Below are positions 3,485 to 61,676 of a DNA stretch of 64,000 bases, in pieces; positions within the stretch are counted from its first letter, which is position 1, and every line of letters begins with the position of its first letter. The translations under genes were made by a program, and so were the position numbers. The notes under the pieces were generated by a model. It did no database searches. It was not told the origin of the DNA and saw only the letters and a list, made by a program, of their open reading frames with translations. The DNA is from a virus (Duplodnaviria > Heunggongvirae > Uroviricota > Caudoviricetes): IMG/VR virus record IMGVR_UViG_3300013383_000018, one strand, 5' to 3'.

Positions 3485-3485
3485 T

Positions 3486-4193: not shown

Positions 4194-5000
4194 ATGGACA
4201 CGACCGTTGGTGCCCTCAAAGTTGGTACACAACTTGTGATGGGCAAGTACGGTGTGGACAAAGACAGCCCGCACCCGATTGTTTGGTTGAAAGGTAATCC
4301 AAACTGTGATTTTATCACAGAAAAAGCTATCGACTACTTGTGCTTCGATGCGGCGGAAGAGGCTGGACATTATAGGTACGTTAATAATGCGAAATATCCA
4401 GTGTCCAATCTGTTTTCGTTCTTAAACAGTGACCAGATGATGTGGTATCACGCAATGCACGACAACGATGCTTCACCCGGTGCTTTTGCAAGACATAGCT
4501 ATGCTCGCTATGAAGACCACTATGGGTTCTTGTATTTCTTTGAAGACTATGAGGTTGCTTCTTTGGTCAGAAAAGAATATGCAGTCGGAGAAAGTCAAGT
4601 GTCATCGTTGATTCGCCTGCCATCAGTCGCAGACATTTTTAGTCTCCAAGATGGACGACGCTTTGACTTGTTCAAAAGGAAAGGCATCCGTCCGAATCCG
4701 ACAGCCGACTTGTTTGACCTAAAAGCTCGTTATGCAGGGCTCGATTCAGAACGTGGATTTGTGAGTTTCTGGCTGTTGGACGACGTTGAGACCGAAAGAG
4801 CAGCGATTGCCAACCGTTCCGGTATGTTAGACAGGCTGACAGCATCAAGCTGCGCTGGGGTAAGACCAGTGTGTACTTTGAGCTCTGACACAATTGTCGA
4901 ACAGCGAGGTGATGGCGCGTTTTCTATTAAACCCTTCGCATCTCAGAATGTCTTTACGGATGAAGAGCTATTTGAATTATTAGGCATGGCGCAGCCTTAA
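4194..5000 (+). CDS. hypothetical protein (268 aa), last gene of the Ubl/JAB/E1 operon
   Basis: RBS GGGAGGG. No recognised motif. Confidence 0.6.
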   Translation: MDTTVGALKVGTQLVMGKYGVDKDSPHPIVWLKGNPNCDFITEKAIDYLCFDAAEEAGHYRYVNNAKYPVSNLFSFLNSDQMMWYHAMHDNDASPGAFARHSYARYEDHYGFLYFFEDYEVASLVRKEYAVGESQVSSLIRLPSVADIFSLQDGRRFDLFKRKGIRPNPTADLFDLKARYAGLDSERGFVSFWLLDDVETERAAIANRSGMLDRLTASSCAGVRPVCTLSSDTIVEQRGDGAFSIKPFASQNVFTDEELFELLGMAQP

Positions 5001-5036
5001 TGCGCCACAGACTGTAACGGATTTTCTCGTAAGAGA

Positions 5037-5090
5037 GCTTTACGCCAAAGGCTAAAGTAACAAATTGTCGGAGAGGAAAACCCTCCGGGA
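5037..5090 (+). repeat. structured hairpin element copy 1 (GCTTTAcGCC-AAA-GGCTAAAGT plus GAAAAC hairpin)
   Basis: Member of a 4-copy family with compensatory stem changes. Lies 37 nt after the stop of the 268-aa gene. Confidence 0.55.
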
Positions 5091-5377
5091 GATGACGCGG
5101 CATCAGTGCGAGCAGCTCGGTAGCCCAGAAGCGACGGCAGCATGACACGGAACCAACCGAATGTCAAGCCCCCCTCGCCAAGACCCAATACAAGAACTGT
5201 ATGTACTAACACCAACCCATGTATTTTCAGGCGAAACGACTACTGAACAATAATTTCGCATCTCACATCCCGCAAGCATCATCTCTCACACTGACGACTC
5301 AGTCTTCAGACTCAAGGAATTCTGGAAGCAGCAGACATATGTAGGTTACAGTTAGTTATTGGACAAGGAGGTAAGAA

Positions 5378-6514
5378 ATGGTCTATATCACTGTTAGGCA
5401 GTCACCGATTTATCACCAGATGACACTGGAAGAGTACCTGTTTCAAAACTATCAGACGCCTCCAGTTGTCAATGCCAATATTGCAAACACAAGAACATAT
5501 GAGGTTGAAAGTGTTAGTGAACATTTTTCCAGCAAGATTGGTGTAGAAACCTTAATCGGAAAACTCGTTCGATTTAATAATGATACGGCAGAGCTTCGTG
5601 CAAAGGAACGGAGCGAGTTGTATGAGACTTTTTATATCCCCAAAAAATCTGGCGGTCTTCGCAGAATTGATGCGCCAAAGGCAGAACTGATGGATGCGCT
5701 GAGAAGACTCAAAACGATTTTCGAGGATGATTTCCATGCACTCTATCATACTGCTGCGTTTGCTTATGTAAAGAAGCGGAGTACAGTCGATGCGGTTAAG
5801 CGCCACCAAAAGAACAGCAGCAAATGGTTCGCAAAGCTTGACCTGCACGATTTCTTTGGCAGCACAACGCTGGACTATGCCATCTCAATGTTCTCGATGG
5901 TCTTTCCTTTTAGCGAGATTGTAAAAGAGCCGCAGGGTGAAGAAGCATTGCGGACGGCTATGTCATTAGCGTTCTTAAACGGTGGACTACCGCAGGGCAC
6001 TCCAATTTCACCGCTTATCACGAATGTGATGATGATTCCGGTTGATTTCAAGCTGTCGAATACGCTCCGCAACTTTGAAAAACAGAGCTTCATTTATACC
6101 AGATATGCAGATGATTTCATCATTTCATCCAAGTATGATTTTGATGTTCGTTCTGTTGAAGAGCTGGTAGTAAGTACATTGAGCAGCTTTGGTGCTCCGT
6201 TTACAATCAATGCAAGCAAGACTCGGTATGGTTCATCAGCGGGGCGCAACTGGAATCTTGGCGTTATGCTGAATAAGGACAACGAGATTACGGTCGGTCA
6301 TAAAAAGAAAAAGCAGTTCCAGTCGATGCTGTACAACTACATCACAGATAAGAACAATGGTGTTGCTTGGGAACGGAATGATGTACAGGTAATGTATGGT
6401 CTGCATAGCTATTATCGCATGGTCGAAAAGGAAACCATTGACGCAATTGTAGCTTACATTAACAAGAAAATGAATGTGGATGTAATCCGCATGATGAAGG
6501 ACGACTTGCGGTAA
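5378..6514 (+). CDS. reverse transcriptase (compact, retron/DRT/DGR-type; no endonuclease domain)
   Basis: RT motifs FYIPKKSGGLRRI (motifs 1-2), KLDLHDFFGS (A), GLPQGTPISPLITNV (B'), YTRYADDFIISS (YADD, C). RBS AAGGAGG. Confidence 0.9.
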   Translation: MVYITVRQSPIYHQMTLEEYLFQNYQTPPVVNANIANTRTYEVESVSEHFSSKIGVETLIGKLVRFNNDTAELRAKERSELYETFYIPKKSGGLRRIDAPKAELMDALRRLKTIFEDDFHALYHTAAFAYVKKRSTVDAVKRHQKNSSKWFAKLDLHDFFGSTTLDYAISMFSMVFPFSEIVKEPQGEEALRTAMSLAFLNGGLPQGTPISPLITNVMMIPVDFKLSNTLRNFEKQSFIYTRYADDFIISSKYDFDVRSVEELVVSTLSSFGAPFTINASKTRYGSSAGRNWNLGVMLNKDNEITVGHKKKKQFQSMLYNYITDKNNGVAWERNDVQVMYGLHSYYRMVEKETIDAIVAYINKKMNVDVIRMMKDDLR

Positions 6515-6562
6515 CGTCTATAAATAACCCGCAATCCTGTAATGCATAATTGCGAAAGCAAT

Positions 6563-6618
6563 GCTTATCGCCAAAGGCATAAGTAACAACTTGATGGGAG
6601 GGAAAACCTCCCCGGAGG
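6563..6618 (+). repeat. structured hairpin element copy 2 (GCTTATcGCC-AAA-GGCATAAGT plus GGGAGG-GAAAA-CCTCCC)
   Basis: About 55-nt paralogue of copy 1, including the second GAAAA-loop hairpin. Lies 48 nt after the RT stop. Confidence 0.55.
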
Positions 6619-6687
6619 CGCATTCACCTGCAGCCTCCAGACATCCCTCATCGCCGGAAGCCGTACAGCAACAGCCCGAAGCTGCCT

Positions 6688-6712
6688 GAATCCATTGTGG
6701 CACAATGGATTC
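6688..6712. promoter_or_regulatory. 25-bp perfect palindrome GAATCCATTGTG-g-CACAATGGATTC
   Basis: 12-bp perfect inverted repeat with a 1-nt spacer. A third half-site GAATCCATTGT lies at 6988-6998. Confidence 0.5.
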
Positions 6713-6843
6713 AAAGCGCCGGAGCAGGATACTGCACGCCAGCCACTGGGCACCGGAGCTCCTCCTCGTGAGGTGTTACCTCCATGTAGATTACAGGATA
6801 ATCAAATTATCATTTGCAGTGAATAACATTTCGTAAGGAATGT

Positions 6844-6865
6844 GCTTCACGCCAAAGGCTGAAGT
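6844..6865 (+). repeat. structured hairpin element copy 3 (GCTTCAcGCC-AAA-GGCTGAAGT)
   Basis: Same conserved loop and flank, compensatory stem pair. Confidence 0.5.
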
Positions 6866-7115
6866 ATCACTTTGCTGGACAGCACGATTCCCCGCCCGCA
6901 GCCTGCTGCGAAGGCGCCTAAGCTTGTTGTACAGCGCATTAAAACTATTCTGGATATCTCACCACCTTTATCTGATGAGCAACAGTTGAATCCATTGTCT
7001 CCCAATGATGCCATCATCGCCACTTGAGATTTGAACTCGCTTTCAGCTCATCCAAATCTCTTGGATACAGGAGATAAAAGAAGAGACCAGAACAGAATAT
7101 ACATATGGACTGCAG

Positions 7116-7814
7116 ATGAGAAAGGAACTAAGCATGATTTACGTCACAGGAGACACACACGCGAACATTGATATAGCCAAGCTTAATACAACAAGGTTCC
7201 CACAGCAAAAGGAATTGACGAAGAATGATTTCGTAATCATCTGCGGAGATTTTGGACTCTGCTGGGACGGTTCGCATCGAGAGATGTGGTGGCAAGACTG
7301 GCTGACGGCGAAAAACTTCACGACACTTTGGATTGATGGCAACCACGAGAACTTTGATATGCTCTACCAGTTCCCGTTAATTGACAAATTCGGCGGGAAG
7401 GTGCGCGAAATCGCTCCTGACATCTATCATCTGGACAGAGGGCAAGTGCTCACGATTGATGGAAAGAAAATCTTCTGCATGGGCGGTGCTCGTTCGGTTG
7501 ATAAAGAGTATCGTGTGGAACACATCTCATGGTGGAAAGAGGAAATGCCGTCCAGAGAAGAAATGGAACGCGCGATTGCAACGCTCGAACAAAATAATTG
7601 GTGCGTTGACTATGTGATTACACATTGTGCACCAAGGAGAATTCAGACTCTGCTCGCAAGCTGGTACGAGAATGACCCGATGGTCAGCTTTTTGGATAGG
7701 GTTTGCTCTGACCTCACATTCAAGCGATGGTTCTTCGGACATTATCATGTGGACAAGCAGGTCAATGAGCAATTTATTGCTCTGTATAATAAAGTAATCC
7801 CGATGGAGTGGTAA
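7116..7814 (+). CDS. calcineurin-like metallophosphoesterase
   Basis: Motifs VTGDTHA, ICGDFG, IDGNHE, GHYH. Start may be 7134 (MIYVTGD). Confidence 0.8.
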   Translation: MRKELSMIYVTGDTHANIDIAKLNTTRFPQQKELTKNDFVIICGDFGLCWDGSHREMWWQDWLTAKNFTTLWIDGNHENFDMLYQFPLIDKFGGKVREIAPDIYHLDRGQVLTIDGKKIFCMGGARSVDKEYRVEHISWWKEEMPSREEMERAIATLEQNNWCVDYVITHCAPRRIQTLLASWYENDPMVSFLDRVCSDLTFKRWFFGHYHVDKQVNEQFIALYNKVIPMEW

Positions 7815-7894
7815 GCCTAACGGTAAGGCAGCGGTTTGCTAAACCGTGAGTAATCCGAAAGGATGTGCAGGTTCAAGTCCTGTCCACTCCGCCA
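7805..7894 (+). tRNA. tRNA-Ser (anticodon GCU), type II with long variable arm, encoded CCA
   Basis: Acceptor GGAGTGG/CCACTCC, anticodon loop TTGCTAA, long variable arm, T-loop TTCAAGT. The 5' end overlaps the stop codon of the preceding CDS. Confidence 0.8.
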
Positions 7895-7970
7895 AGGGGT
7901 GTGGTGTAACGGCTAACACAGCGGTCTCCAAAACCGTCAGATGGTGGTTCGAATCCATTCACCCCTGCCA
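7895..7970 (+). tRNA. tRNA-Trp (anticodon CCA), encoded CCA
   Basis: Acceptor AGGGGTG/CACCCCT, anticodon loop CTCCAAA, T-loop TTCGAAT. Confidence 0.8.
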
Positions 7971-8156
7971 GTTGTTGGGTAGCTCCCAACTGATGTGAGC
8001 GATTATCGGCTTACCTCACAAAGAATGAAAATGCTCGCTGAAAACTGCGCTTGTCTTGATGCGTCAAGACCGGTTTGACCTGACGGAATAGGGGCTACGA
8101 CTTTTCGGAGCGTAGTTGCCGGTAGCGTGTGACAATCTAAGCGAGAAGCCGACCAT

Positions 8157-8233
8157 GCGGCGTTGGTGTTCAACGGTTAGCACTCCGGTCTTCCAAACCG
8201 GTGGTGCCAGTTCGAGTCTGGTACGCCGCTCCA
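8157..8233 (+). tRNA. tRNA-Gly (anticodon UCC), encoded CCA
   Basis: Acceptor GCGGCGT/ACGCCGC, anticodon loop CTTCCAA, T-loop TTCGAGT. Confidence 0.8.
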
Positions 8234-15938: not shown

Positions 15939-16685
15939 ATGCTGGCAAATCCGAAAAGAACAAAAGATGAAATCGTGCAGTGGATTCGAGAATACTTCGC
16001 TGCAAACGGCAATGATTGCTGCGCTGTCATCGGTATTTCCGGTGGCAAAGATAGCAGCGTAGTCGCAGCACTTTGCGTTGAAGCTCTTGGCGTAGAGCGG
16101 GTCATCGGCGTGCTGATGCCAAATGGTCGGCAGAAAGATATCGCAGACTCCAAGCTGCTGGTCGATACGCTTGGCATTGCAAGTGTCACAGTTGACATTG
16201 GCGGTGCATACAGCAAGATGGTTGATGTGGTCGGCAGAGTAATGCCGTCTGGAGTAAGTAATCAGGCAGCGGTCAATCTCCCTCCAAGGCTGCGTATGGC
16301 GACGCTCTATATGGTCGCTCAGTCTTTGGCTCGCGGAGGTCGCGTCGCAAACACCTGCAATCGCTCCGAGGATTATGTTGGATACTCCACAAAGTTCGGT
16401 GACAGCGCTGGTGACTTCAGCCCACTTGCAAACATCATGGTACATGAGGTTCGTCAGATTGGCTACGAACTCCCCATTCCCCGTGAGCTGGTAGACAAGA
16501 CTCCGTCGGATGGTCTTTGCGGTAAGACAGACGAGGACAATCTGGGCTTCACCTATACGCAGCTCGACAACTACATCATGCATGGTAGTAGTGGGGATGA
16601 AGACATCGACAAGGTAATTGCAAGGAAGCATATGCAGAACCTGCACAAGCTCAATCCGATGCCTGCCTACGGTTCACAGCCGTAA
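15939..16685 (+). CDS. nadE: NH3-dependent NAD+ synthetase
   Basis: PP-loop GISGGKDSS. GYSTKFGDSAGDFSPL and LGFTYTQLDNYIMHG align with E. coli NadE. Confidence 0.85.
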   Translation: MLANPKRTKDEIVQWIREYFAANGNDCCAVIGISGGKDSSVVAALCVEALGVERVIGVLMPNGRQKDIADSKLLVDTLGIASVTVDIGGAYSKMVDVVGRVMPSGVSNQAAVNLPPRLRMATLYMVAQSLARGGRVANTCNRSEDYVGYSTKFGDSAGDFSPLANIMVHEVRQIGYELPIPRELVDKTPSDGLCGKTDEDNLGFTYTQLDNYIMHGSSGDEDIDKVIARKHMQNLHKLNPMPAYGSQP

Positions 16686-16694
16686 GGTGATTGT

Positions 16695-17969
16695 ATGGAA
16701 GAGATAGCGATTGTTCGCTGTTTGCAGAGCGCAAGCGGCGCAATTAGTAAAATGCGGGTCTTACAAGCCTTCAAAGATGTTGAGAATTTCCGTAAGATTT
16801 TGTACTATGCTTTGAATCCAATGCTAACGTACAAGATTTCGGAACAAACACTGCGAACGCCTGTCGAGTACGACCCAACAATTACAATCACGATGACCGA
16901 CATCTTCGAAATCTGTGAGCTGCTATCAAAGCGAAAAGCATTGGATGCAGCAACCGTGTATCAAGTGCGAGTTTTCGTGCAGTGTTTGACTGACCCGGAA
17001 TCATCCGAGTTTTACATCGAACTTCTGTCAAAGACACTTCGGTTGGGTGTCACAGCGAAAACTGTGAACAAGGTTATCCCCGGATTGATTCCCGAATGGG
17101 AGGTTCAGCAAGCATATCCAATTGACAAATATCCAATCAAGGAAGGCACGGAGTTTTGGCTCACTCAAAAACTGAATGGTGTCAGGGCAACATACTACAA
17201 AGGGCAACTGTTCGCAAGAAGCGGAGTTCCCTACGAAGGGCTTGGACATATTCTGGACGCGCTCAAAATCGACGAGAACGATAGCTATGTTTTTGACGGA
17301 GAGCTTACCCTACGAGATAAAGGCGAACTGTCTGATAATGAGGCGTTCCGCAAGGCAACGGGCATTATCAACTCAGAAGACACTGATAAAACGGCAGTTT
17401 GCTACACCATCTTCGATGTGCTGACAACAGAAGAGTTCGATGGTGGTGTCAGCGAGGGCGGTTATGGGTATCGCAGGTCTTTCTTAGACCAGCTTCATCG
17501 TTTCATTCCGCAAGATGGTCGAGTCAACATCCTCCCTGTTCTGTACCACGGTAGTGACCAGACAAAAATCGACGAACTCTTAGAGCAAATGGTTCGGGAG
17601 GATAAAGAGGGGCTGATGGTCAACTTCGATGTCCCCTATAAGCGAAAGCGTCACAATGGAATCCTCAAAGTCAAACGCTTCTACACTATGGATTTGCGTA
17701 TCTTGCGTTGCGAAGAAGGAAGCGGTAGGCTTGCAGGAACGTTGGGCGCCTTTGTGCTTGATTATAAAGGCAACGAAGTGAATGTCGGGTCAGGGTTCTC
17801 CGACGAACAACGTGCAGCTTTTTGGGCGGCTAAAGATGAAATGCCCGGACGGTTGTGCGAGGTAAAATACAAGGAAATATCGTATGACAAGAACACCGGT
17901 GCTGAGAGTTTGCAGTTCCCGGTGTTTATTACTATCCGAACAGACAAAGACGAGGTCAGCTACGGCTGA
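16695..17969 (+). CDS. ATP-dependent polynucleotide ligase (probable DNA ligase)
   Basis: Nucleotidyltransferase motif I variant KLNGVR. Length and C-terminal OB-like region. Confidence 0.6.
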   Translation: MEEIAIVRCLQSASGAISKMRVLQAFKDVENFRKILYYALNPMLTYKISEQTLRTPVEYDPTITITMTDIFEICELLSKRKALDAATVYQVRVFVQCLTDPESSEFYIELLSKTLRLGVTAKTVNKVIPGLIPEWEVQQAYPIDKYPIKEGTEFWLTQKLNGVRATYYKGQLFARSGVPYEGLGHILDALKIDENDSYVFDGELTLRDKGELSDNEAFRKATGIINSEDTDKTAVCYTIFDVLTTEEFDGGVSEGGYGYRRSFLDQLHRFIPQDGRVNILPVLYHGSDQTKIDELLEQMVREDKEGLMVNFDVPYKRKRHNGILKVKRFYTMDLRILRCEEGSGRLAGTLGAFVLDYKGNEVNVGSGFSDEQRAAFWAAKDEMPGRLCEVKYKEISYDKNTGAESLQFPVFITIRTDKDEVSYG

Positions 17970-17983
17970 GAAAGGAGGATTGC

Positions 17984-18382
17984 GTGGGTAAAGTAAAAGC
18001 GGCACCACAGTTTTCAGAGTCTATCAGTAGTTTCTGTAAGCTGATGGAGAATGCGCAAAAGGACTATGCGTGGAACTATGATGAGGTGAACCGCATGGAT
18101 AGGCTCACGCAGGACTACCTTCACAAGCTGGAGCTTGACGGTCTTGATTACAAAGAGCGAGCCAAGGTTGCTACACAGCTTGCAAAGTGCCGTCAGGCAC
18201 GACGTGAATGTAAAGACACCGTGGAAATCCTTGAGCCGCTCGTCCAATTTCTTGAAAGCGACAAAGGCAAAAACCTTTTGAACCTTGTGCGTGAAGCGCT
18301 GGGTAAGACCAGAAAGGTCGAAGAGCGTATGGAAACCCGCACATACATACCAAGAGTCTTAGAGCAGGAGGCAACAACATGA
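17984..18382 (+). CDS. hypothetical coiled-coil protein; GTG start
   Basis: AAGGAGG is 5 nt before the GTG. Confidence 0.5.
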   Translation: MGKVKAAPQFSESISSFCKLMENAQKDYAWNYDEVNRMDRLTQDYLHKLELDGLDYKERAKVATQLAKCRQARRECKDTVEILEPLVQFLESDKGKNLLNLVREALGKTRKVEERMETRTYIPRVLEQEATT

Positions 18383-18555
18383 ACATCGTGTTCTGGCTCA
18401 TCGTAGTCATTGTGCTTGTGCTTATCTGGTTCTGTTTGAGTTTCGCCTTTAAGGGCGTCGGCGGAGTCGGGATGCGATTGTACAATGATGCGAAGAAAGA
18501 AATCTCCGAGGAAACGGAGAAAAAATCTGACGAAGAAAAGGAAGTAAAGGAATGA
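18379..18555 (+). CDS. small membrane protein (58 aa)
   Basis: Hydrophobic N-terminus. RBS GGAGG. Not in the ORF track (<60 aa). Confidence 0.4.
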   Translation: MNIVFWLIVVIVLVLIWFCLSFAFKGVGGVGMRLYNDAKKEISEETEKKSDEEKEVKE

Positions 18556-19442
18556 GAAAAGGTAAACTTGGCGCAATCTTGCTGGCACTTGTGCTGATTA
18601 TCGGCTTGGTTTGCTGCGTGGTGTGTCTTGAGAAGATTCCAGCAGGCTACGTCGGCGTTGTGTATAACATGAACGGCGGCGTCGATGGTGAAGTCTTGGA
18701 ACAGGGCTGGCATCTGGTTGCTCCGACCAAAAAGGTGACCAAGTATTCTATCGGTATTGAGCAGTCATATCTGACGGCTGAGGATAAGGGCGACTCGCCC
18801 AAGGATGAGAGTTTCAACATCCCTACCTCTGATGGTAAGACTGTCCGAGTGAATATTGAGTTCTCATATCGTTTTGATGAGACACGAGTCTCCGAAACCT
18901 TTGCAATGTTCAAAGGAAAATCTGGCGAGGCAATCAAGGATTCGTTTATTAAGCCCAAGGTTGTGGCGTGGACGCAGGAGGTTTCCGCAAACTATCCTGT
19001 TACTGACATCTTTGGCGATAAGCGTACTGAAATCAATGCCGAGTTGGATACCTATTTGCGTGAGAAGTTCGACCAGTATGGCATCATTATTGACACTGTA
19101 AACTTCACGGATATTTCAGTTGATGATGAAACGGCTGCAGCTATCCAGAAGAAAGTCACCGCTCAGCAGGAACTTGAGTTGGCGAATATTGAAAAGCAAA
19201 CCGCCAAGGTTCAAGCTGAGAAAGACAGAGAGGTCGCACAGATTAACGCAGAGAAAGCGGTCATTGAAGCCGAGGCAAAGGCTGAGGCAATGCGTATCGC
19301 TGCAGAAGCAGAAGCCGATGCAAACCGTAAGATTGCGGCATCACTTACTGACGAGCTGATTGAGAAAATCAAGTATGAGCAGTGGAATGGTGAGCTGCCT
19401 ACGGTCACCGGCTCAACGTCCATTGTCAGCATTGAACCGTAA
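18552..19442 (+). CDS. SPFH/band-7 (prohibitin/HflC-like) membrane protein
   Basis: N-terminal TM. PAGYVGVVYNMNGGV core. Alanine-rich coiled-coil C-terminus. Confidence 0.8.
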   Translation: MRKGKLGAILLALVLIIGLVCCVVCLEKIPAGYVGVVYNMNGGVDGEVLEQGWHLVAPTKKVTKYSIGIEQSYLTAEDKGDSPKDESFNIPTSDGKTVRVNIEFSYRFDETRVSETFAMFKGKSGEAIKDSFIKPKVVAWTQEVSANYPVTDIFGDKRTEINAELDTYLREKFDQYGIIIDTVNFTDISVDDETAAAIQKKVTAQQELELANIEKQTAKVQAEKDREVAQINAEKAVIEAEAKAEAMRIAAEAEADANRKIAASLTDELIEKIKYEQWNGELPTVTGSTSIVSIEP

Positions 19443-19654
19443 TGGAAGACTGGTGGGATAATTTAGAGAGCTGGGTCAAGGTTCTCATCTGTATCGTCGT
19501 CTCCATTATTTCGCTTGCGCTAATTGTTCTTACGATAATTATGCCAATCGTTTGGAGCCTCAAATTCCACACCCCAGCATATCTGCTTTTGTGGTGCATC
19601 CCCGCCGGTATTCCTATTGGCGTATCAGCTTATCAGGAGCTTTTTGATTTCTAA
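19442..19654 (+). CDS. small membrane protein
   Basis: Two TM helices. Confidence 0.5.
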   Translation: MEDWWDNLESWVKVLICIVVSIISLALIVLTIIMPIVWSLKFHTPAYLLLWCIPAGIPIGVSAYQELFDF

Positions 19655-19670
19655 ATAAGGAGGAGATTAT

Positions 19671-20165
19671 TTGACAGCCGCATTATATCTGGTCATTCTG
19701 TTTTTCGCTAAGGTGTTGGACAACACGCTCGGCACAGCCAAGACAATCTTGGTGCAGAGAAATCGTTGTGTCCTTGCCGGAGTCGCTCTCGGCTTGTCAA
19801 ATTTCATCTACCTTAGCATCACAAAAGATATCGTAACAAGCGACAGCAGCCTCGCCCTTGCAACTGTTTCCATTGCAAGTGGTGTTGGCTGCTGTTTAGC
19901 TGTCGCATTAAGCAACAGGTTTTCAAAAGATAAGACCTATGTGAACGTCATCATGTCAGATAATTTGGAAGCGATGCAAGAGTTTCGAGATTTTCTGGCG
20001 GCACATCATATCACAAATGTCGCTGCTGACAGCTACACTTTGGACTGGAGCAAGAAGTCCATCACCATTACTGCCTATGCAGAGACAAAAGCACAGAGCA
20101 AACTAATTGACGATTACATCGTAAATAGCTCATTGAAGTTCAAAAGAGTCATCAGTAAAAGCTAA
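19671..20165 (+). CDS. membrane protein; TTG start
   Basis: AGGAGG is 6 nt before the TTG. Hydrophobic N-terminal half. Confidence 0.5.
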   Translation: MTAALYLVILFFAKVLDNTLGTAKTILVQRNRCVLAGVALGLSNFIYLSITKDIVTSDSSLALATVSIASGVGCCLAVALSNRFSKDKTYVNVIMSDNLEAMQEFRDFLAAHHITNVAADSYTLDWSKKSITITAYAETKAQSKLIDDYIVNSSLKFKRVISKS

Positions 20166-20201
20166 AAACGATGGTTTTAATAATTCAAAGGAGGGTGTCC
20201 T

Positions 20202-21287
20202 ATGCGACATTTGGCAACAATCCGTGAGATTGCATCTCTCCACCCGATTGAAGGAGCCGACCGCATTGAAGTTGCGCAGGTCGATGGTTGGGAATGCGTG
20301 GTTCAGAAGGGCGAGTTCCATGTTGGAGAGCATATCGTTTACATTGAGGTCGATTCCATCGTCCCCGAACGTCCTGAGTTCGAGTTCCTGAGAGACAGAA
20401 AGTTCAGAGTTCGCACCATTAAGTTGCGTGGTCAGGTCAGTCAGGGCTTGGTTCTCCCGCTGTCAATCCTCCCGAATGGTACTCCTGCCATTTTGGGCGC
20501 CGATGTAACGGACGCTCTGGGTATTAAGAAGTATGACCCAGAAGCGCAGCAAGAAGCACAGCTCTTGACGAAACAGCCTCAGAAACCGCAGAGCGCAATC
20601 GCTCGTTTCCTGATGCGATTCAAGTGGTATCGCAAGCTGTTTATGAAGCCCAAGCGCAAGGGCGGATTCCCTGACTGGATTGCCAAGACGGACGAGACTC
20701 GCATTCAAAACCTTACGACGCTCTTTGAGATGGAGCGAAACAAGGGAACAAAGTTCTCTGTTACAGAGAAAGTTGACGGGCAGTCAGCGACGTATTACCT
20801 GCGCAAAGTCTCAAAGCGCAAGTATGAGTTCGGTGTTTGCAGCCGAAACATCTACCTTGGCACGCCCGACAACAGCTCCTACTGGACGATTGCACGTCAG
20901 CTCCACATTGAAGATGTGTTGAAGCACCTCATCGGTGATTATGAAACCATCGTTTTACAAGGTGAGATTTGCGGCAACCAGATTCAGGGCAATAAGTACC
21001 ATATCAGTGGGTACGACCTGTTTGCCTTCAACCTGATTTATCCAGACCACAAGTGTGGCACGGCAGAAATCAAGAAGCTGCTTGAGCCGTATGGAATTAA
21101 GACTGTCCCGATTGTTGAAGAGGGCAAGACTTTGCCTGAGACCATCGCTGAGCTGGTCGAGTATTCCAAGGGAAAATCAGTGGTTCGTAAGGAGCAAAAA
21201 CGAGAAGGCGTAGTTATGCGTAATGTCCAGAGCAACATCAGCTTCAAGGTCATCAACCCTGACTTCCTTCTCGCAGAAAAGGACTGA
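20202..21287 (+). CDS. RNA ligase (Rnl-type) with N-terminal tRNA-binding-like OB domain
   Basis: Motif I TEKVDGQS (KxDG). The N-terminal about 100 aa resemble the EMAP/Myf OB fold. Confidence 0.65.
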   Translation: MRHLATIREIASLHPIEGADRIEVAQVDGWECVVQKGEFHVGEHIVYIEVDSIVPERPEFEFLRDRKFRVRTIKLRGQVSQGLVLPLSILPNGTPAILGADVTDALGIKKYDPEAQQEAQLLTKQPQKPQSAIARFLMRFKWYRKLFMKPKRKGGFPDWIAKTDETRIQNLTTLFEMERNKGTKFSVTEKVDGQSATYYLRKVSKRKYEFGVCSRNIYLGTPDNSSYWTIARQLHIEDVLKHLIGDYETIVLQGEICGNQIQGNKYHISGYDLFAFNLIYPDHKCGTAEIKKLLEPYGIKTVPIVEEGKTLPETIAELVEYSKGKSVVRKEQKREGVVMRNVQSNISFKVINPDFLLAEKD

Positions 21288-21292
21288 TTTTT

Positions 21293-21772
21293 ATGAGCGG
21301 TAAATCAACAGACTTGACCAACAGAACGTTCGGGAAATTAAAAGTGGTCAAGCGAGCTGAGAACAGCAGCAGTGGTCAACCAAGGTGGCTGTGCGAATGC
21401 AGATGTGGCAAGACCTGTATCGTTGATGGGAGATTCCTCAAAAATGGTGCTGTAAAATCTTGCGGGTGTTTGCCGAGAGGTGTTCCGCAGGGTGAAATGC
21501 CAGAGCGAGCAATGGCACAACCATCGGTGAGTCTTGGTCGGCTGAGAAAAAGCAACGATGACCCTTGGCGCAATTTGGCGAATGCCATTGTTGCAGTCGC
21601 AGCAGATGATTATCGTTCAGCACTTCGTAATGAAGATGAGGGTTTGTTAAAAAGTCTGGAGAGGTTCTTCCATTCTGAATGGTACAGGATTTTGACAGAC
21701 GTAGACGCAGACAGGCTTCTCGGAATGTTGCGAAGAGAACAGAGCGGCTCATTACAAGCCGCTTACATATAA
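21293..21772 (+). CDS. hypothetical Cys-rich protein
   Basis: CECRCGKTC...CGC cluster. Confidence 0.5.
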   Translation: MSGKSTDLTNRTFGKLKVVKRAENSSSGQPRWLCECRCGKTCIVDGRFLKNGAVKSCGCLPRGVPQGEMPERAMAQPSVSLGRLRKSNDDPWRNLANAIVAVAADDYRSALRNEDEGLLKSLERFFHSEWYRILTDVDADRLLGMLRREQSGSLQAAYI

Positions 21773-21776
21773 ACGG

Positions 21777-21800
21777 AGCCGAGTTATTCGGCTCTTTTCT
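21777..21800 (+). terminator. rho-independent terminator
   Basis: GAGCCGA-GTTAT-TCGGCTC followed by TTTT. Confidence 0.7.
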
Positions 21801-21846
21801 TTGAGCAATCAAGTCCATGATTACTTGAAGAAAAGAATCGAAAGGA

Positions 21847-22209
21847 GTGGCACAAATGTTTAGAGTTCATAGAGATTTCAAGGGGTTGTTGAAGGCTGCG
21901 CAGGATGAATATGATTCCCTCGTTGAATTGAACGAGAGCCTGCGAAAGAAAGTTGCCGAATGGAATAAGGATGAAGAGATTCGAAAAGCGGTAGAACTGG
22001 CTGAGTATAATCGTACCCACTCCTTATGCAAGATGTCAGATAAGGAAATGAAGGCAGAAAGAGTTTTCAGGGATAGCCACTACAAGTCGTGTAAGAATGG
22101 CGGTAAGTATTTGTACGAGCTGACCGGAACAGGCATTGGAACGGCGATTACAATTAAGTGTCCTGTCTGCGGCGAAGAAAAGGACATTACTGACTACGAT
22201 TGCTGGTGA
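21847..22209 (+). CDS. hypothetical protein with C-terminal zinc-ribbon (CPVCG)
   Basis: RBS AAGGAG. Confidence 0.5.
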   Translation: MAQMFRVHRDFKGLLKAAQDEYDSLVELNESLRKKVAEWNKDEEIRKAVELAEYNRTHSLCKMSDKEMKAERVFRDSHYKSCKNGGKYLYELTGTGIGTAITIKCPVCGEEKDITDYDCW

Positions 22210-22219
22210 GGTGATGAAC

Positions 22220-22381
22220 ATGATTTTTCGTGTAATTCTGTTTGCGCTGGCAACAGCAGCAGTTATTGGTGGTCTTGCATATTGGTTGAAGTGTCTTTGC
22301 CTGTGCGACTATGAAAATGCTTGTGACTATTCACAGTGCGATAGCTGCCCGTTTCCTTGCGAGAGGCATAATTATGGGTAA
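22220..22381 (+). CDS. small Cys-rich membrane protein (53 aa)
   Basis: TM helix then CLCLCDYENACDYSQCDSCPFPC. Confidence 0.4.
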   Translation: MIFRVILFALATAAVIGGLAYWLKCLCLCDYENACDYSQCDSCPFPCERHNYG

Positions 22382-22581
22382 GGCGAAAAGAAAACCAAGA
22401 CCATCAGTGCCAGACTGGTTTTGGTGGGGACAGGACGGGTGCTGGTTCTGCAAACAAAGAAATAATTGCAATTAGTGTAAGGCGAACCGTGAATATGTAA
22501 AAGAGTTCGGAGAGAAGAAGCAAAAAGGAAGACACGCCAGCGCAAAGCGAGGGGCGCGGACGAAACCGCAATTGATGGAGG

Positions 22582-22893
22582 ATGATTATGGATTTGTGGA
22601 AGGGATATGAGCTTAGTAGGACATACGTCCCAGCGGCTTATTACACGATTACATCGATTAAGAGCAAGAATGGCAGGGCGAATCCGTTGCATGACGAGGC
22701 GCTTGGGCGAAAGGCATACGTTGTTTACTTAGAGGTCGGAGAGCGTGGCTTTATCAAGTATTTGCCCGAATATGACGACCGGTATCATTGCCTACATACA
22801 TCTACTGTTTTGGATTTTACTCCGTGGGAAAACGGCGAAGACACAATTACCATCCAAACAGCAAATACGGAGTATATCTTGACGAAGCAGTAA
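22582..22893 (+). CDS. hypothetical protein
   Basis: RBS GGAGG. Confidence 0.5.
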   Translation: MIMDLWKGYELSRTYVPAAYYTITSIKSKNGRANPLHDEALGRKAYVVYLEVGERGFIKYLPEYDDRYHCLHTSTVLDFTPWENGEDTITIQTANTEYILTKQ

Positions 22894-22917
22894 GACTTTT
22901 CAGCAGGAGGTCAATCA

Positions 22918-23411
22918 TGCTTGAGTTCTGTGGAAGAAAGTTCACTTGCGATGAATGCCCAATTTGTGAAGGCATTGAGCATAGGCTCAGGGCTGCAAGA
23001 GAAGGTGGCTACGAACCGCAGCTTGAATACTGCGGTTGCGATAAAGTCCAGACTGAGTTTTTTATCAGTGGTTATTGCAGTGATGCTTTTGAGGCGGACA
23101 AGCCGCAGCACAAACTGTGTGAACCGAGGAAAACTGGGAGAGCGTATCGGCGTAAGATGCGCAAGCAGAAGAAAGAAAAGCTGATGCGTATTATGACATA
23201 CGGATATAGGTCAGGTATCGGCTATACAGATTGGGGTTGGAAAGATGGCGTTTATCAGCCGGTCGGAAGTTACATCCAGTACCCCAAGAACTCAAACAGG
23301 CAGACGTTTTGGAAGACATATTCCAACAGGAAAATCAGACGCTATAAGGGCAACATTCGTAAGGGAAATTCGTACCGGAGACATTTCGATTATGCGTGGG
23401 AGGTTGACTAA
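22918..23411 (+). CDS. hypothetical basic protein with N-terminal CxxC pairs
   Basis: RBS GCAGGAGG before ATG 22918. Confidence 0.5.
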
Positions 23412-23851
23412 TGGAGAATAAAAATATGCGGAAGCTCAATGTAACCGTCCAGTGTATGGCTGTGTATAACAGCAGCATTATGGTTCCACGCGAACTGACG
23501 TTTGAAGAGGCAATCAAATATGCCAAAGAGCATATTGACGAGATTAACCTTGGCGAACTTGAGTACATTTCAGATAGCGATGAGCTCGATGAAGAGAACT
23601 GTGACTTCGACGAGGAGGAAGACATCGACTCTGATTGTAGGGTGCTTTATGAAACTGGTATTGAGGAGCCAGAAATCCTTGGCTCCGGGTCAACGTACAG
23701 CAATATTGTATATTCCCCGGATGAAGAGCGTGCTTTTGAAGAATTCCATCACTGTGGACGGAACTATCTGCACAGGATAACTTACCGTAAAAAGTCACCG
23801 TACACAACTACGGAGTGGTGGGACGAAGACCTGAAATGCTGGCGGAGCTAA
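23411..23851 (+). CDS. hypothetical acidic protein
   Basis: ORF only. Confidence 0.45.
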   Translation: MENKNMRKLNVTVQCMAVYNSSIMVPRELTFEEAIKYAKEHIDEINLGELEYISDSDELDEENCDFDEEEDIDSDCRVLYETGIEEPEILGSGSTYSNIVYSPDEERAFEEFHHCGRNYLHRITYRKKSPYTTTEWWDEDLKCWRS

Positions 23852-23857
23852 GCCGCT

Positions 23858-24073
23858 ATGGATATATTTTTTAAGAACGATGGTTCATACAGTCAATCAG
23901 CAGTGGGAATTCCAGTCCTTGTGGACTACACACCGGTTGGATTTGTACGAGAAGTTAATGCCGACATGGTAACGTGCTCCCTGTTCGATAAATTCATCGC
24001 GAAAGAGTGGTTGGCGCAGCATCTGACGACAAAAGAACCGGACATATGCTCTGTATATATCGATACGAAATGA
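23858..24073 (+). CDS. hypothetical protein
   Basis: ORF only. Confidence 0.4.
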   Translation: MDIFFKNDGSYSQSAVGIPVLVDYTPVGFVREVNADMVTCSLFDKFIAKEWLAQHLTTKEPDICSVYIDTK

Positions 24074-24086
24074 TGGAGGTAATTAC

Positions 24087-24500
24087 ATGGGAGTAAGTAT
24101 CAGCGAGTTTAGAGGCGAGTATTACTTTCTGAGTAACTTCTACTCGGCACCCGTTACCTATAACGGAATGTGTTTTGAGAATAACGAGGCGGCATTTCAA
24201 GCGGCTAAATGCCCAGAGCGCATGGCTGAGTTTTGCTGTCTGAATCCGTCAGAGGCAAAGAAGCTTGGGCGTAGGGTTAAGCTCCGTGGTGACTGGGAGG
24301 CGGTCAAAGATACCGTTATGTATGAGATTTGTAAGGCAAAGTTCTCACAGAATCCTGATTTGGCAGACAAGCTTGCTGCGACCAAGGGCGCCGAACTCAT
24401 TGAAGGCAATACTTGGGGCGACCGCATCTGGGGTGTCTGCGATGGCGTTGGAGAAAATCGCCTTGGTAAAATCCTTATGCGGGTCAGAGCAGAAATGTGA
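24087..24500 (+). CDS. NADAR (YbiA/DUF1768) domain protein, ADP-ribose processing
   Basis: Hallmark YFLSNFY motif and size. RBS GGAGG. Confidence 0.7.
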   Translation: MGVSISEFRGEYYFLSNFYSAPVTYNGMCFENNEAAFQAAKCPERMAEFCCLNPSEAKKLGRRVKLRGDWEAVKDTVMYEICKAKFSQNPDLADKLAATKGAELIEGNTWGDRIWGVCDGVGENRLGKILMRVRAEM

Positions 24501-24508
24501 TGTGACCT

Positions 24509-24724
24509 ATGAAAAGGGCTAACACTTATAAAGGAAAACTCGGCTGGCAGTCCGAGTTCAGCCACAGATATGCTTGCTGGGCGAACAACCACAATGGGTG
24601 GGCAAAGGCTAAAAAGTCCAATAAGCGGTTGGCTAAGCGCAGACTAAAAGATGAACTACGAAAAGAACTTGTTTATAGCATATCGGATAAACAAGTTGGG
24701 AATGAGCGGAAGGAGAATTTATGA
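24509..24724 (+). CDS. small basic protein
   Basis: ORF only. Confidence 0.4.
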   Translation: MKRANTYKGKLGWQSEFSHRYACWANNHNGWAKAKKSNKRLAKRRLKDELRKELVYSISDKQVGNERKENL

Positions 24725-24984
24725 AGAGAGAAGATTTTGTCTTCGACCATATGGATGACGAGTACGAAGACTATTGGTTCAAGGTTGTTGGCGACACAAA
24801 AGACGAGCTTACAAAGAAGTACATGGAAATGTGCATGGTTTCAGTGACCGAGGTTGTCTATTCCAATAAGGAGCAGGCTCTTGGCGTGAAGCGCCTCTTC
24901 CCATTTAACTACGATGTTATCATGCCAGATGATTCGGAGCTCAGGGATATGCTGGTATCTCTTGTGGCTGAGCAGAATTCTTGA
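24721..24984 (+). CDS. small acidic protein
   Basis: RBS AAGGAG. Confidence 0.45.
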   Translation: MKREDFVFDHMDDEYEDYWFKVVGDTKDELTKKYMEMCMVSVTEVVYSNKEQALGVKRLFPFNYDVIMPDDSELRDMLVSLVAEQNS

Positions 24985-25224
24985 TTTTTATGGGCGGTTT
25001 AATTGTTGCGCTCGTCATTATGGGTACCACAGCTCTACTAATGTGTGCCGTGTATAAGCATGACACTGGACGTAGCCTCCCCAAAGACTTGTTCCATGAC
25101 GTTTTTACGAAAGGCTGATTTTATGAAGCAATACAACAGCTATCTAATACCGGTATTCGCAATGGCGATTGCGACACTACTAATGTTTGTTTGCATCTTT
25201 AATCCTATGGGGTGGTGATTCAAC

Positions 25225-26004
25225 ATGGCGCAGTACAAAATTGGAATTACAGAGGCGGGAGACGCAGGCGTTGACCTGTCTTGGATAGAAAAATTGGACA
25301 GCGTCGATGCCGCTATTCTGGTTACGAAGTGTGTATCTCCAGACTTCTTCGATGCTGTTCTTGAGCATAGGGAGAAACTCGTTGTCCACGCTACAATCAC
25401 AGGATATGGGCACTCTGTTCTGGAGCCTAATGTGCCTACCCCATACGAGGAGTTTGCCGCAATTATGGAACTTGTCAAAGCCGGGTTCCCGATGGAGAAA
25501 GTCGTTATTCGTATTGACCCCATTATCCCAACAGAAAAAGGACTTTCAGTTGCGTACCGCACAATAATTTCCTTTATGGAAATGGGGTTTCAACGCTACA
25601 GAGTGAGCGTCATTGATATGTATCCACACGCAAGAAACCGGTTCAAAGAAGCTGGATTGCCACTACCTTATGGTGATAGTGGTTTTGCTCCGTCAAAAGC
25701 ACAGCTTTTGAAAGTAGACAATATGCTGCGGCAGGCAAAGCAGTTTTGGGAAGGGTTGAACAACGGTAAAATTCTCCGAATCGAGTCTTGTGCAGAGCCC
25801 GGTCTTGCGGAGCCTATTGCCTGCGGCTGCATTTCCGACTATGACCTCGGCTTACTTGGACTTTCCAAAGATACAGAAGCAAATGGTGTTGGCTATCAAC
25901 GCAATGGCTGTATGTGTTATGCGGGGAAAACAGAGTTATTAAAACACAAAGCAAGGTGCCCACACGGTTGCTTGTATTGTTATTGGAAGGATATGAAAGG
26001 TTAA
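25225..26004 (+). CDS. hypothetical protein with C-terminal Cys/His metal cluster
   Basis: CGC...CMCYAGK...CPHGCLYCY cluster. Confidence 0.55.
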   Translation: MAQYKIGITEAGDAGVDLSWIEKLDSVDAAILVTKCVSPDFFDAVLEHREKLVVHATITGYGHSVLEPNVPTPYEEFAAIMELVKAGFPMEKVVIRIDPIIPTEKGLSVAYRTIISFMEMGFQRYRVSVIDMYPHARNRFKEAGLPLPYGDSGFAPSKAQLLKVDNMLRQAKQFWEGLNNGKILRIESCAEPGLAEPIACGCISDYDLGLLGLSKDTEANGVGYQRNGCMCYAGKTELLKHKARCPHGCLYCYWKDMKG

Positions 26005-26008
26005 TTCG

Positions 26009-26215
26009 ATGACTAATTTCGAGGAAATTAAGAGGAAAATAGCCAATATGAATATCGATGAGCTGATAGAGTTTTGCGGCGGTGATAATTGCGGGAATGT
26101 GCTTTTCTCTTTTGTGAGCGATGGCGATTGTTGCGGGAACAATTGCAAGGTCAGCTATGATTGTGGAGGCTGTATTAAAAAGTTCTTGCAAAGAGAGACG
26201 AGGGTAGTCAGATGA
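26009..26215 (+). CDS. small Cys-rich protein
   Basis: ORF only. Confidence 0.4.
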   Translation: MTNFEEIKRKIANMNIDELIEFCGGDNCGNVLFSFVSDGDCCGNNCKVSYDCGGCIKKFLQRETRVVR

Positions 26216-26424
26216 AATGTCCATATTGTGAATCTGGGACAAATGATTTTGTTCCAATGAACCAAGCCGTTGAATACAGCGGCATTGAGATGGCTGTAAA
26301 CAGGCAGGGAATGTTGAGGGTAAGAGTGCTTGACGACGATGGCAGTTTCACGACTCAAGATATCATTGAGATACGCAACTGCCCACTGTGTGGGAAACGA
26401 TTTATGAAGGGTCGATGTGTATGA
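26212..26424 (+). CDS. small zinc-ribbon protein
   Basis: CPYCESG...CPLCGK. Confidence 0.45.
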   Translation: MKCPYCESGTNDFVPMNQAVEYSGIEMAVNRQGMLRVRVLDDDGSFTTQDIIEIRNCPLCGKRFMKGRCV

Positions 26425-26699
26425 GCGGCATCGTCCATTGCCCAAGATGTGGGCACCATATAAACATCCCTTCTGATGGAACTGTCGGGTACTGCCCGAT
26501 ATGCGATAAGGAGGTTACTGACATGGAGAAAAGAACAATTTGGGTAAAGCCATCCTGCTTTGCTCCAGAGTTTGAGATGGTTATTCCTGTCCCGACAGAC
26601 CGAGATGATGAGGAGTACATCGATGAACTGCTGGACGGAATTCTGAATAACGAGGTTCGCTACAATATCGAGTGGGATTTTGTAGACGGGCTAAGCTGA
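26421..26699 (+). CDS. small zinc-ribbon protein
   Basis: CPRCGHH...CPICDK. ATGA overlap with the upstream gene. Confidence 0.45.
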   Translation: MSGIVHCPRCGHHINIPSDGTVGYCPICDKEVTDMEKRTIWVKPSCFAPEFEMVIPVPTDRDDEEYIDELLDGILNNEVRYNIEWDFVDGLS

Positions 26700-26742
26700 C
26701 AATGGGAATATATGTGGTGGTGGAAGACAACCGATTGGAGGT

Positions 26743-26958
26743 GTGGTTGTGGCTGAGCGCAACGAACACAAGAGCGCGAAATACCAAGATGGTGACATTT
26801 ATTTGAATCCATGCTTCGGCGACCTGTGGGTTGTGGATGGCACATCGTTCATTAAAATCAATAACGGATATGCAATTGAGTTGGACGAGCCAGAAGGATT
26901 CATTAAAGTTGGACATATCGATGGAGTAATTAACAAGAGAAGTCAACCGACAAAGTGA
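26743..26958 (+). CDS. hypothetical small protein
   Basis: ORF only. Confidence 0.4.
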   Translation: MVVAERNEHKSAKYQDGDIYLNPCFGDLWVVDGTSFIKINNGYAIELDEPEGFIKVGHIDGVINKRSQPTK

Positions 26959-27218
26959 GGGTTCAAATGACAGTCAAGGACATTCTTCCGAGCCATCCAG
27001 TTGAAATCATGGTTAGAACCAACTATCCAGAAAGCCTTTTGCCGTATCTAAGCAGTGAGAGAATTGAACAGGGATTGCTTGTTGGTTATTGCTCTTGGGA
27101 CGGTGAGAATCTCATCCCTGCGGATGGTGATTACTATTCTGTGGATGAAGTTATTTCAAAATATGAGTATGAAGAGGACGGCAGTCTAACATACTGGACT
27201 GTCTCTGAATGGGTGTAG
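26955..27218 (+). CDS. hypothetical small protein
   Basis: ORF only. Confidence 0.4.
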   Translation: MRVQMTVKDILPSHPVEIMVRTNYPESLLPYLSSERIEQGLLVGYCSWDGENLIPADGDYYSVDEVISKYEYEEDGSLTYWTVSEWV

Positions 27219-27262
27219 ACGACCGCTTTGTAGATTTGCTGTTATACATATTTCCTTCAGCA

Positions 27263-27284
27263 GCTTTTCGCCAAAGGCAAAAGT
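27263..27284 (+). repeat. structured hairpin element copy 4 (GCTTTTcGCC-AAA-GGCAAAAGT)
   Basis: Same loop and flank, lying 44 nt after a stop codon. Followed by a 12-bp long-range pairing (27304-27315 with 27375-27386) that encloses a terminator. Confidence 0.5.
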
Positions 27285-27315
27285 AAGAATTCGGCACTAT
27301 GCTCGTAAACCAGAA

Positions 27316-27337
27316 GCCCGCTACGCGGGCGGTTTTT
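27316..27337 (+). terminator. rho-independent terminator
   Basis: GCCCGC-TAC-GCGGGC followed by GGTTTTT. Confidence 0.65.
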
Positions 27338-27466
27338 CCTTTTACTCACTCGCTTTGCAAGCAACGCTCGTGAGTTCTGGTTTACGACCAATGCTTATGC
27401 ACATCGGTTGAGGGAGTTAGAAAAACGACCGATGCGGAAAGCGGTTACAGTGAAGAGGTGGGATAA

Positions 27467-27679
27467 TTGTTATGTGATAAATGCTTACACAAAAAAGTGT
27501 GCAGGTTTGAAGTCCCAGATGAGGGGCAATGTGATGACTTTATTGACGAAGCCATCGTAGATAAATTCAACAGCATTGGATGCACATCATTTCGAATTAG
27601 CGCGGATTCCATAAAAGGAATACTCGACAGACAATTAGCCGAACCCCCGGCTACTCTTGGGCGAAGCAATGCAGGTTGA
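27467..27679 (+). CDS. small hypothetical protein
   Basis: ORF only. Confidence 0.35.
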   Translation: MLCDKCLHKKVCRFEVPDEGQCDDFIDEAIVDKFNSIGCTSFRISADSIKGILDRQLAEPPATLGRSNAG

Positions 27680-61543: not shown

Positions 61544-61550
61544 TTTCTTG

Positions 61551-61676
61551 CAATGTTTCTTTGCCGCACATTGTGAAGCGTTTTTGCATAAGCGATGTTT
61601 CTTTGCCGCACACCGCGAAGCGTCCTTGCATAAACAATGTTTCTTTGCCGCACATTGTGAAGCGTTTTTGACGAAA
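61551..61676 (-). ncRNA. toxI: type III antitoxin RNA: three tandem 42-nt direct repeats (ToxI-like)
   Basis: Repeat units start at 61551, 61593 and 61635 and share TGTTTCTTTGCCGCACAttGtGAAGCGTttTTGcATAA. Located between the promoter and the terminator upstream of toxN. Confidence 0.75.

Follow-up and report, generated by a model that had tools for sequence, protein, structure and literature searches.

A single reverse transcriptase of a gut phage probably serves several retron-like RNAs that share a hairpin

RESULTS

A hairpin family and a phage reverse transcriptase

We analyzed 64,000 nt of a Caudoviricetes virus (IMG/VR record IMGVR_UViG_3300013383_000018), here called the window, in which a + strand gene (5378..6514) encodes a retron-type reverse transcriptase (RT) of 378 aa with the Pfam domain RVT_1 and the active site YADD. 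An initial annotation of the window had described four copies of a small hairpin, three of them around this gene. A pattern scan with GCTTNNCGCCAAAGGCNNAAGT gave exact matches at precisely the four positions claimed (5037, 6563, 6844 and 27263), on the + strand only. Allowing up to two mismatches added no further match in the window, and 100 dinucleotide shuffles gave no match at all. The letters of the copies also bear out the paired variable stem positions (TA/TA, AT/AT, CA/TG and TT/AA), and the distances to the preceding stop codons were correct (5000 to 5037, 6514 to 6563 and 27218 to 27263). The 3′ flank AGTAA, described as common to all four, is present in three; the third copy has AGTAT. 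A repeat search of the window showed that copies 1–3 share sequence past the hairpin, as a 55-nt repeat family (D2).

The hairpin, which we call P2, has a lower stem of 6 bp and an upper stem of 3 bp, separated by a bulge of 1 nt and capped by a triloop. A covariance-model search had been proposed as a check, and a model of the hairpin with its flanks found copies in relatives as well as a fifth copy in the window that had been overlooked, at 10298–10319 (TCTTCT-C-GCT-TAA-AGC-AGAAGA; 27.8 bits, E 3e-5). This copy has the shape of the others in different letters, was recovered by a second model, for which 45 diverse relatives were used, and is kept at equal spacing from the RT in nine related IMG/VR contigs. 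A sixth candidate (18498–18534, E 0.28) was dismissed, lying inside a small open reading frame (ORF). The repeated hairpin is thus real, and it is a conserved stem-loop of five structured non-coding RNAs (ncRNAs) that resemble the template RNAs of retrons. The clustering around the RT holds for the first three copies and is only part of the picture, since two of the five units lie far off.

The hairpin is one module of a longer RNA

Folding each copy with its surroundings gave a common layout of 226–344 nt (Units 1–5, the fourth copy belonging to Unit 4 and the newly found one to Unit 5). A 9-bp helix between two arms, a1 and a2, closes the unit, with a G directly after a1 and another directly before a2. 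Inside it come P1, a hairpin of variable sequence and often with a GNRA loop, which abuts P2; then P2; then a short conserved flank (AACAAnTTG or AAGRATTYG); and then a structured interior of 120–265 nt. All five units are on the transcribed (+) strand. The hairpin had been presented as a stand-alone element of 22 nt; it is instead one module of a much longer RNA whose ends pair in a long-range helix. The layout also accounts for the stop-codon distances of the copies, since each unit begins right behind the upstream gene and has a1 and P1 ahead of P2. The fold z-scores of Units 1, 2, 3, 5 and 4 are −1.6, −5.8, −4.7, −9.0 and −4.6, respectively.

Unit 1 (5010..5353, +) has a1 at 5010–5018, its G at 5019, the second G at 5344 and a2 at 5345–5353, and the fold pairs a1 with a2; the unit ends 24 nt before the RT start codon. 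Its P1 (TCTC-GTAA-GAGA, 5025–5036) runs directly into P2 (5037–5058), which is followed by the conserved flank AACAAATTGTCGG (5059–5071) and an interior that forms a variable core (5072 to about 5323). Units 2 and 3 follow the RT gene. Unit 2 (6535..6798, +) is closed by a1 (6535–6543, G 6544) and a2 (6790–6798, G 6789) and carries P1 at 6549–6562 (ATTGC-GAAA-GCAAT) and P2 at 6563–6584. Unit 3 (6812..7117, +) is likewise closed by a1 (6812–6820, G 6821) and a2 (7109–7117, G 7108), with P1 at 6826–6843 and P2 at 6844–6865.

Two units are remote from the RT gene, Unit 5 being 3.7 kb and Unit 4 20.7 kb downstream of it, and their a1/a2 arms are identical to each other. The interiors of both form a long stem-loop. 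Unit 5 (10247..10472, +) has a1 at 10247–10255, G at 10256 and 10463, and a2 at 10464–10472; its P1 (10264–10296) and P2 (10298–10319) are followed by the long interior stem-loop and a 3′ hairpin. Unit 4 (27221..27446, +) has a1 at 27221–27229, G at 27230 and 27437, and a2 at 27438–27446, with P1 at 27238–27261 and P2 at 27263–27284. Its long stem pairs 27304–27315 with 27376–27387; this is the 12-bp pairing already noticed after the fourth copy, and it does enclose a G+C hairpin followed by GGTTTTTCC, which a terminator scan scored as terminator-like. In relatives the T-run does not adjoin the terminator-like stem.

Several smaller features of the units were seen. The interiors are T-poor in Units 1 and 2 only. 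An element, GAATCCATTG, is common to Units 2 and 3 (6687–6714 and 6986–6998) and forms a perfect 12-bp interior hairpin in Unit 2. The a2 region of Unit 3 (7109–7118) overlaps the ATG, at 7116, of a metallophosphatase ORF, so that folding of the unit could hide that start codon. A search for targets of the unit interiors within the window gave short matches only; among them, 16 nt of the Unit 2 interior (6725–6740) match exactly the opposite strand of an NrdD-like gene (55722–55737; in-window E 0.002), through which Unit 2 RNA could pair with the NrdD-like mRNA, although the match may be due to chance. No relevant Rfam match was found in the whole window at gathering score, nor in 4950–7150 and 27150–27700 at E up to 5; at that permissive level Y RNA (YrlA), group II introns, ribozymes and the other Rfam families could all be set aside.

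The hairpin accompanies a clade of related RTs

An exact-pattern scan of IMG/VR gave 134 instances at 85 loci. The variable positions pair in all but one instance, through six Watson–Crick and two wobble combinations, and the context is conserved on both sides of the hairpin. More distant relatives keep the layout as well. The human fecal phage record MT835544.1, whose RT is 41% identical, has a unit of the same layout in front of its RT: a1 (AAAAAATTGTGAT) pairs with a2 (ATCACGATTTTTT), P1 is TTGCT/AGCAA, P2 is GCACTC-A-GGT-TAA-ACC-GAGTGT and the flank is GACGAATTGTC. A second P2 lies about 920 nt after this RT.

Using an RT alignment, we also scanned contigs of bacterial and archaeal genomes and obtained 25 further loci (L087–L111; RT identity 37–75%), mainly on contigs from Clostridia bins with a few from Bacteroidales bins, which together with MT835544.1 (L086) form our set of 26 RT-clade loci. 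The same scan supplied a comparison set of 55 generic retron RT loci (identity ≤31%). The hairpin model matches 21 of the 26 clade loci. Its 44 matches, all on the RT strand, fall at stereotyped places: 250–310 nt upstream of the RT start, just past the RT stop, or further downstream. The 55 generic loci yielded a single marginal match, on the opposite strand (E 0.99). A link between hairpin and RT had been suggested from three copies in the window; it is supported by this co-occurrence and by the placement of Unit 1 just upstream of the RT. In Unit 1 orthologues a2 ends 15–25 nt before the RT start codon. Some relatives have an extra unit between the E1-like and Hoc-like genes (L206, at 3915; L208, at 5705), so the number and position of units vary between lineages.

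Covariation supports P2 and the closing helix

Selection on structure had been proposed from the compensatory differences among the four copies, and the relatives uphold it. Over 44 distinct sequences P2 is 98.7% paired (slid controls, 33–52%), eight of its nine pairs show double-sided changes, and 62 compensatory cells were counted against 14.5 in shuffles. Relatives at 41–64% RT identity keep the shape of P2 with changed letters. The closing G·U pair is kept in 37 of the 44 sequences. Read on the opposite strand, a G·U pair becomes a C·A mismatch, so this and the other G·U pairs place the fold on the transcribed (+) strand, and the hairpin therefore likely acts as RNA.

The long-range helix behaves in the same way. 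Across 24 units, Units 2 and 3 of the window among them, a1/a2 is 96.3% paired (slid controls, 27–49%), with compensatory change in all nine pairs (67 cells against 17.6 in shuffles) and the two opposing Gs, one after a1 and one before a2, in every unit. Unit 4 gives examples of such covariation in relatives, where GGTTGCCCT pairs with AGGGCAACC and AGTCGCCTT with AAGGCGACT. RNAalifold, run on seven Unit 1 orthologues with no structure supplied, recovered a1/a2, P1 and P2. Over 64 units the P1 stem beside P2 has a mean length of 5.75 bp, compared with 3.83 bp after shuffling.

The apical part of P2 (bulge, upper stem and loop) is more alike among units of one genome than between genomes, with 1.9 differences in 10 nt within and 4.6 between (permutation p < 2e-4). 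The unit types themselves predate the genome splits, so the likeness looks like concerted change of the P2 apex together with a genome-specific reader that the units share.

Conserved scaffolds and variable cores

We compared the window with related phages in which the four-fold sites of the RT gene differ by about 20%. The 5′ scaffolds of the units are 96–100% identical in these comparisons, which fits purifying selection on them, while the interiors are 67–89% identical with their length kept. The contrast is sharper in one very close relative (L168). Its RT gene differs from that of the window at four of 1134 bases, yet Unit 1 has 44 differences, all within 5072–5280; these core changes preserve length, consist mostly of transitions and have no adenine bias. 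Neutral drift cannot explain this contrast between core and RT gene, which calls for recombination of the core or local hypermutation. Sharp variation between near-identical phages is also seen in the interiors of Units 2 and 3.

The RT is retron-like

The best NCBIfam match of the RT is retron_St85_RT (1.3e-51, under the family cutoff), the PADLOC matches are retron RT_II-A (5.3e-46) and RT_I-A, and the best PDB matches are the RTs of retrons Ec83 (8.6e-20) and Ec78. Retron models align to it over its full length (1e-46 to 1e-51); the Drt2 model matches the palm only (6.5e-11), and group II intron and DRT enzymes in general score far more weakly than retrons. As its scores stay under the cutoffs of the specific retron families and its NAXXH and VTG motifs are altered, the enzyme is best called retron-like. 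RTs of the clade range from 378 to 410 aa, and the RT cluster nearest to that of the window has 1,532 member sequences.

Neighboring genes

Directly upstream of the RT lies a three-gene cluster (1075–4163 overall; ORFs at about 1075–2568, 2489–3484 and 3486–4163), which precedes the RT in every RT-clade locus that covers the region. One gene encodes a 540-aa protein whose function is unknown and in which the motif IPNPHIxRYxCLG has an invariant H and C. The other two encode a JAB/JAMM metalloprotease (E89, H152-x-H154-x7-S162-xx-D165), which weakly matches Rpn11, and a ThiF/E1-like enzyme of 225 aa. Searches of IMG/VR that started from the ThiF gene found the RT in 41 of 42 loci and in 52 of 54 further loci, and two of the three loci without it are cut by the contig end. 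In one clade member (L110), 19 nt separate the E1-like gene from the RT gene. The cluster and the RT could form a functional E1/JAB–RT module, or could merely share a gene order. A tRNA match (964–1045, +) overlaps the listed start of ORF 946–2568, whose real start is therefore probably further downstream.

Elsewhere in the window, nine tRNA matches (7805–9165, +) come after the metallophosphatase gene that lies just past Unit 3. The regions 12581–21287 and 29040–56906 hold a large complement of genes for RNA repair and nucleotide metabolism, which encode RtcB, NAMPT, DNA ligase, RNA ligase, a CCA-adding enzyme, NrdD, DnaB and a DNA polymerase of 1075 aa, and a serine recombinase gene (29040–30122) starts 1.6 kb after Unit 4. 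On the − strand, a Fusobacteriales-1 RNA (three 42-nt repeats) and a drum RNA reached the Rfam gathering score close together, at 61550–61669 and 61989–62099.

DISCUSSION

Several retron-like RNAs proposed for one RT

We propose that P2 is the RT-binding handle of several retron-like msr–msd RNAs, and that the single RT of this gut phage probably serves several templates instead of the usual one. From sequence comparisons we give this proposal a probability of about 0.6. Pairing of a1 with a2 would set the G after a1 opposite the G before a2. P1 and P2 would play the part of the msr and the structured interior that of the msd, or template. The RT would bind P2 by reading its bulge, upper stem and triloop, acting in cis on Unit 1 and in trans on Units 2–5. 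Reverse transcription would probably be primed as a branch from the G after a1, and part of each interior would be copied into a short complementary DNA (cDNA), so that several RT-DNAs would result. A role as anti-defense decoys is one possibility for these products.

Three lines of evidence make the RT the likely partner of P2: Unit 1 sits in the position of a retron ncRNA, the units carry features of retron ncRNAs, and the apex of P2 is genome-specific. Four such features have been described for retron ncRNAs: the end repeats hybridize, two G residues oppose each other, the msr has one to three hairpins, and the msd forms a long stem-loop (Mestre 2020, PMC7736814). The first three are found in all of our units and the fourth in Units 4 and 5. 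Among the roles that the initial annotation had considered, that of an RT recognition site fits best; nothing points to antitermination, processing or RNA stability, nor to a recombinase site.

The comparison with known retrons runs both ways. The RT is of the retron lineage, its closest relatives being the type I-A RTs of Ec83 and Ec78 and the St85 family; retron ncRNAs lie directly upstream of the RT gene, as Unit 1 does; hybridizing a1 and a2 with two facing Gs at their inner end and short hairpins after a1 are common to retrons and to the units of the window; and the long interior stem-loop of retrons is matched by Units 4 and 5. In retrons one of the facing Gs is the priming residue, to which the branched msDNA is joined by a 2′-5′ link. 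The window differs in having five units for one RT, two of them kilobases away, in the long multi-hairpin interiors of Units 1–3, in an RT without the NAXXH and VTG motifs, and in setting, since the element resides in a large phage genome with a JAB protease and an E1-like enzyme upstream and no known retron effector nearby.

The coat-protein operators of phages MS2 and PP7 are short RNA stems interrupted by one bulged nucleotide and topped by a small loop, conserved in shape and free in the letters of the stem. Their analogy with P2 is one of shape only, with no sequence relationship, and the partner of P2 is presumed to be the RT.

Several observations count against our proposal. Aligned to the Ec83 RT (NAKIH and VTG), the RT has AVKRH and NLG in place of the NAXXH and VTG motifs, with only the H and the G kept, and it scores under the curated NCBIfam cutoffs of the specific retron families. 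The interiors of Units 1–3 are several shorter hairpins over 180–265 nt, not one long msd stem. Five of the RT-clade loci have no P2 match; four of these have RTs of 37–46% identity and one is truncated. The P2 alignment behind the 98.7% pairing was fitted to the model, which favors pairing, although the raw sequences show the same pairing, and the a1/a2 alignment, which took in nine bases to either side of the opposing Gs, was anchored manually on them. Gene conversion, as opposed to RT specificity, could give the likeness of P2 apices within a genome. Finally, dispersed extra ncRNA units have not been reported for retrons in the literature that we searched, where described retrons have one ncRNA beside the RT; nor did that literature describe this RT clade or any retron having several ncRNAs.

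Alternative interpretations

A possible objection is that the units are structured phage small RNAs that work solely as RNA (regulators, scaffolds or decoys), that P2 is bound by a phage or host protein other than the RT, and that proximity to the RT is mere synteny. All the loci examined belong to one broad phage lineage, in which shared gene order could mimic a functional link, and the phage is rich in RNA biology, with tRNAs, RtcB, an RNA ligase and a CCA-adding enzyme; the distance of Units 5 and 4 from the RT also suits this idea. We nevertheless consider it unlikely, because Unit 1 abuts the RT ribosome-binding site in orthologues, because the a1/a2 helix with its opposing Gs and two hairpins is the layout of retrons, and because the apical part of P2 changes along with the RT lineage.

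It is slightly less probable still that the units are a branch of a UG27-type system. UG27 occurs in gut phages of Bacteroidota and Bacillota with variable arrays whose units resemble one another in structure but have diverse sequences; these units template short cDNA hairpins of 50–100 nt (Mestre 2022, PMC9226505; Minerva preprint 10.64898/2026.09.22.753630). This ncRNA array is the closest published parallel to our system: each combines a phage RT with several units that have a common scaffold and differing sequences, the number and position of units vary, and the habitat is the gut. The RT length of UG27 (380–450 aa) is also near that of our clade. The differences, which set the two systems apart by published descriptions of UG27 rather than by its sequences, are nonetheless numerous. 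The UG27 RT is of class 2 UG/Abi with the active site YSDD, where ours has YADD and is fitted by retron models over its full length and by Drt2 in the palm only. UG27 units are tandem, of 135–167 nt, with the motifs AUCN7UANAG and UUYA, an arrangement not seen in the window; ours are longer and partly dispersed, and AUCN7UANAG is not enriched in the window (five occurrences against 6.4 expected), with only one occurrence within a unit. The two UG27 accessory proteins (sORF and bORF) are described as domain-less; the conserved RT neighbors here are the 540-aa protein and the JAB protease and E1-like enzyme, the latter two with recognizable domains, which may count as a further difference.

We regard as very improbable the idea that the hairpins are transcription signals, whether hairpin promoters used by a phage RNA polymerase (as in N4), terminators, attenuators or processing sites. 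The copies are intergenic, 37–48 nt past a stop codon and on the coding strand, and Unit 4 contains a terminator-like hairpin; that spacing, however, is explained by a1 and P1 ahead of P2. P2 is not followed by a T-run, a search for sigma-70-like promoters gave none next to a unit on the + strand, and the window encodes no giant virion RNA polymerase of the N4 type, its largest ORF (1075 aa) being the DNA polymerase. The hairpin in Unit 4 sits inside the long interior stem and, if an efficient terminator, would remove a2. A 22-nt signal would moreover leave the covarying helix that spans each 226–344-nt unit unexplained.

Least probable of all is a functionless dispersed repeat left by duplication or a small mobile element, for although Units 4 and 5 have identical a1/a2 arms and copies 1–3 lie in a 55-nt repeat, the scaffolds stay nearly invariant where neutral sites differ by about 20%, and compensatory changes keep the pairing down to 41% RT identity.

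Two further candidates were rejected. A diversity-generating retroelement would have a template/variable repeat pair, of which there is none in the window; the RT is moreover of the retron type and the core changes lack adenine bias. A hidden gene of the DRT2 kind is not indicated either, as no stop-free frame is common to the units on either strand.

Implications

In published descriptions a retron pairs one RT with a single neighboring template RNA, and retrons are studied as bacterial defenses. In a widespread lineage of gut phages, by comparison, a retron-type RT appears to have three to five cognate RNAs, some of them kilobases off and all with P2. More tentatively, and with a good deal less confidence than we place in our main proposal, the system may be a new kind of retroelement, in which a retron-derived RT would use at least five dispersed templates that share a handle, with cores actively diversified by cassette exchange or RT-mediated copy-back; the RT would work with the JAB protease and the E1-like enzyme, and the cDNAs would act in infection, for example as anti-defense decoys.

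The variation of the cores between near-identical phages and the constant linkage to the E1-like and JAB genes bear on what phage-made cDNAs are for. If P2 is the RT handle, it would define a recognition module, compact and portable, for reverse transcription in trans, which would interest those who engineer retrons. Alongside the UG27 arrays our proposal, if true, would mean that multi-template reverse transcription has evolved more than once in phages.

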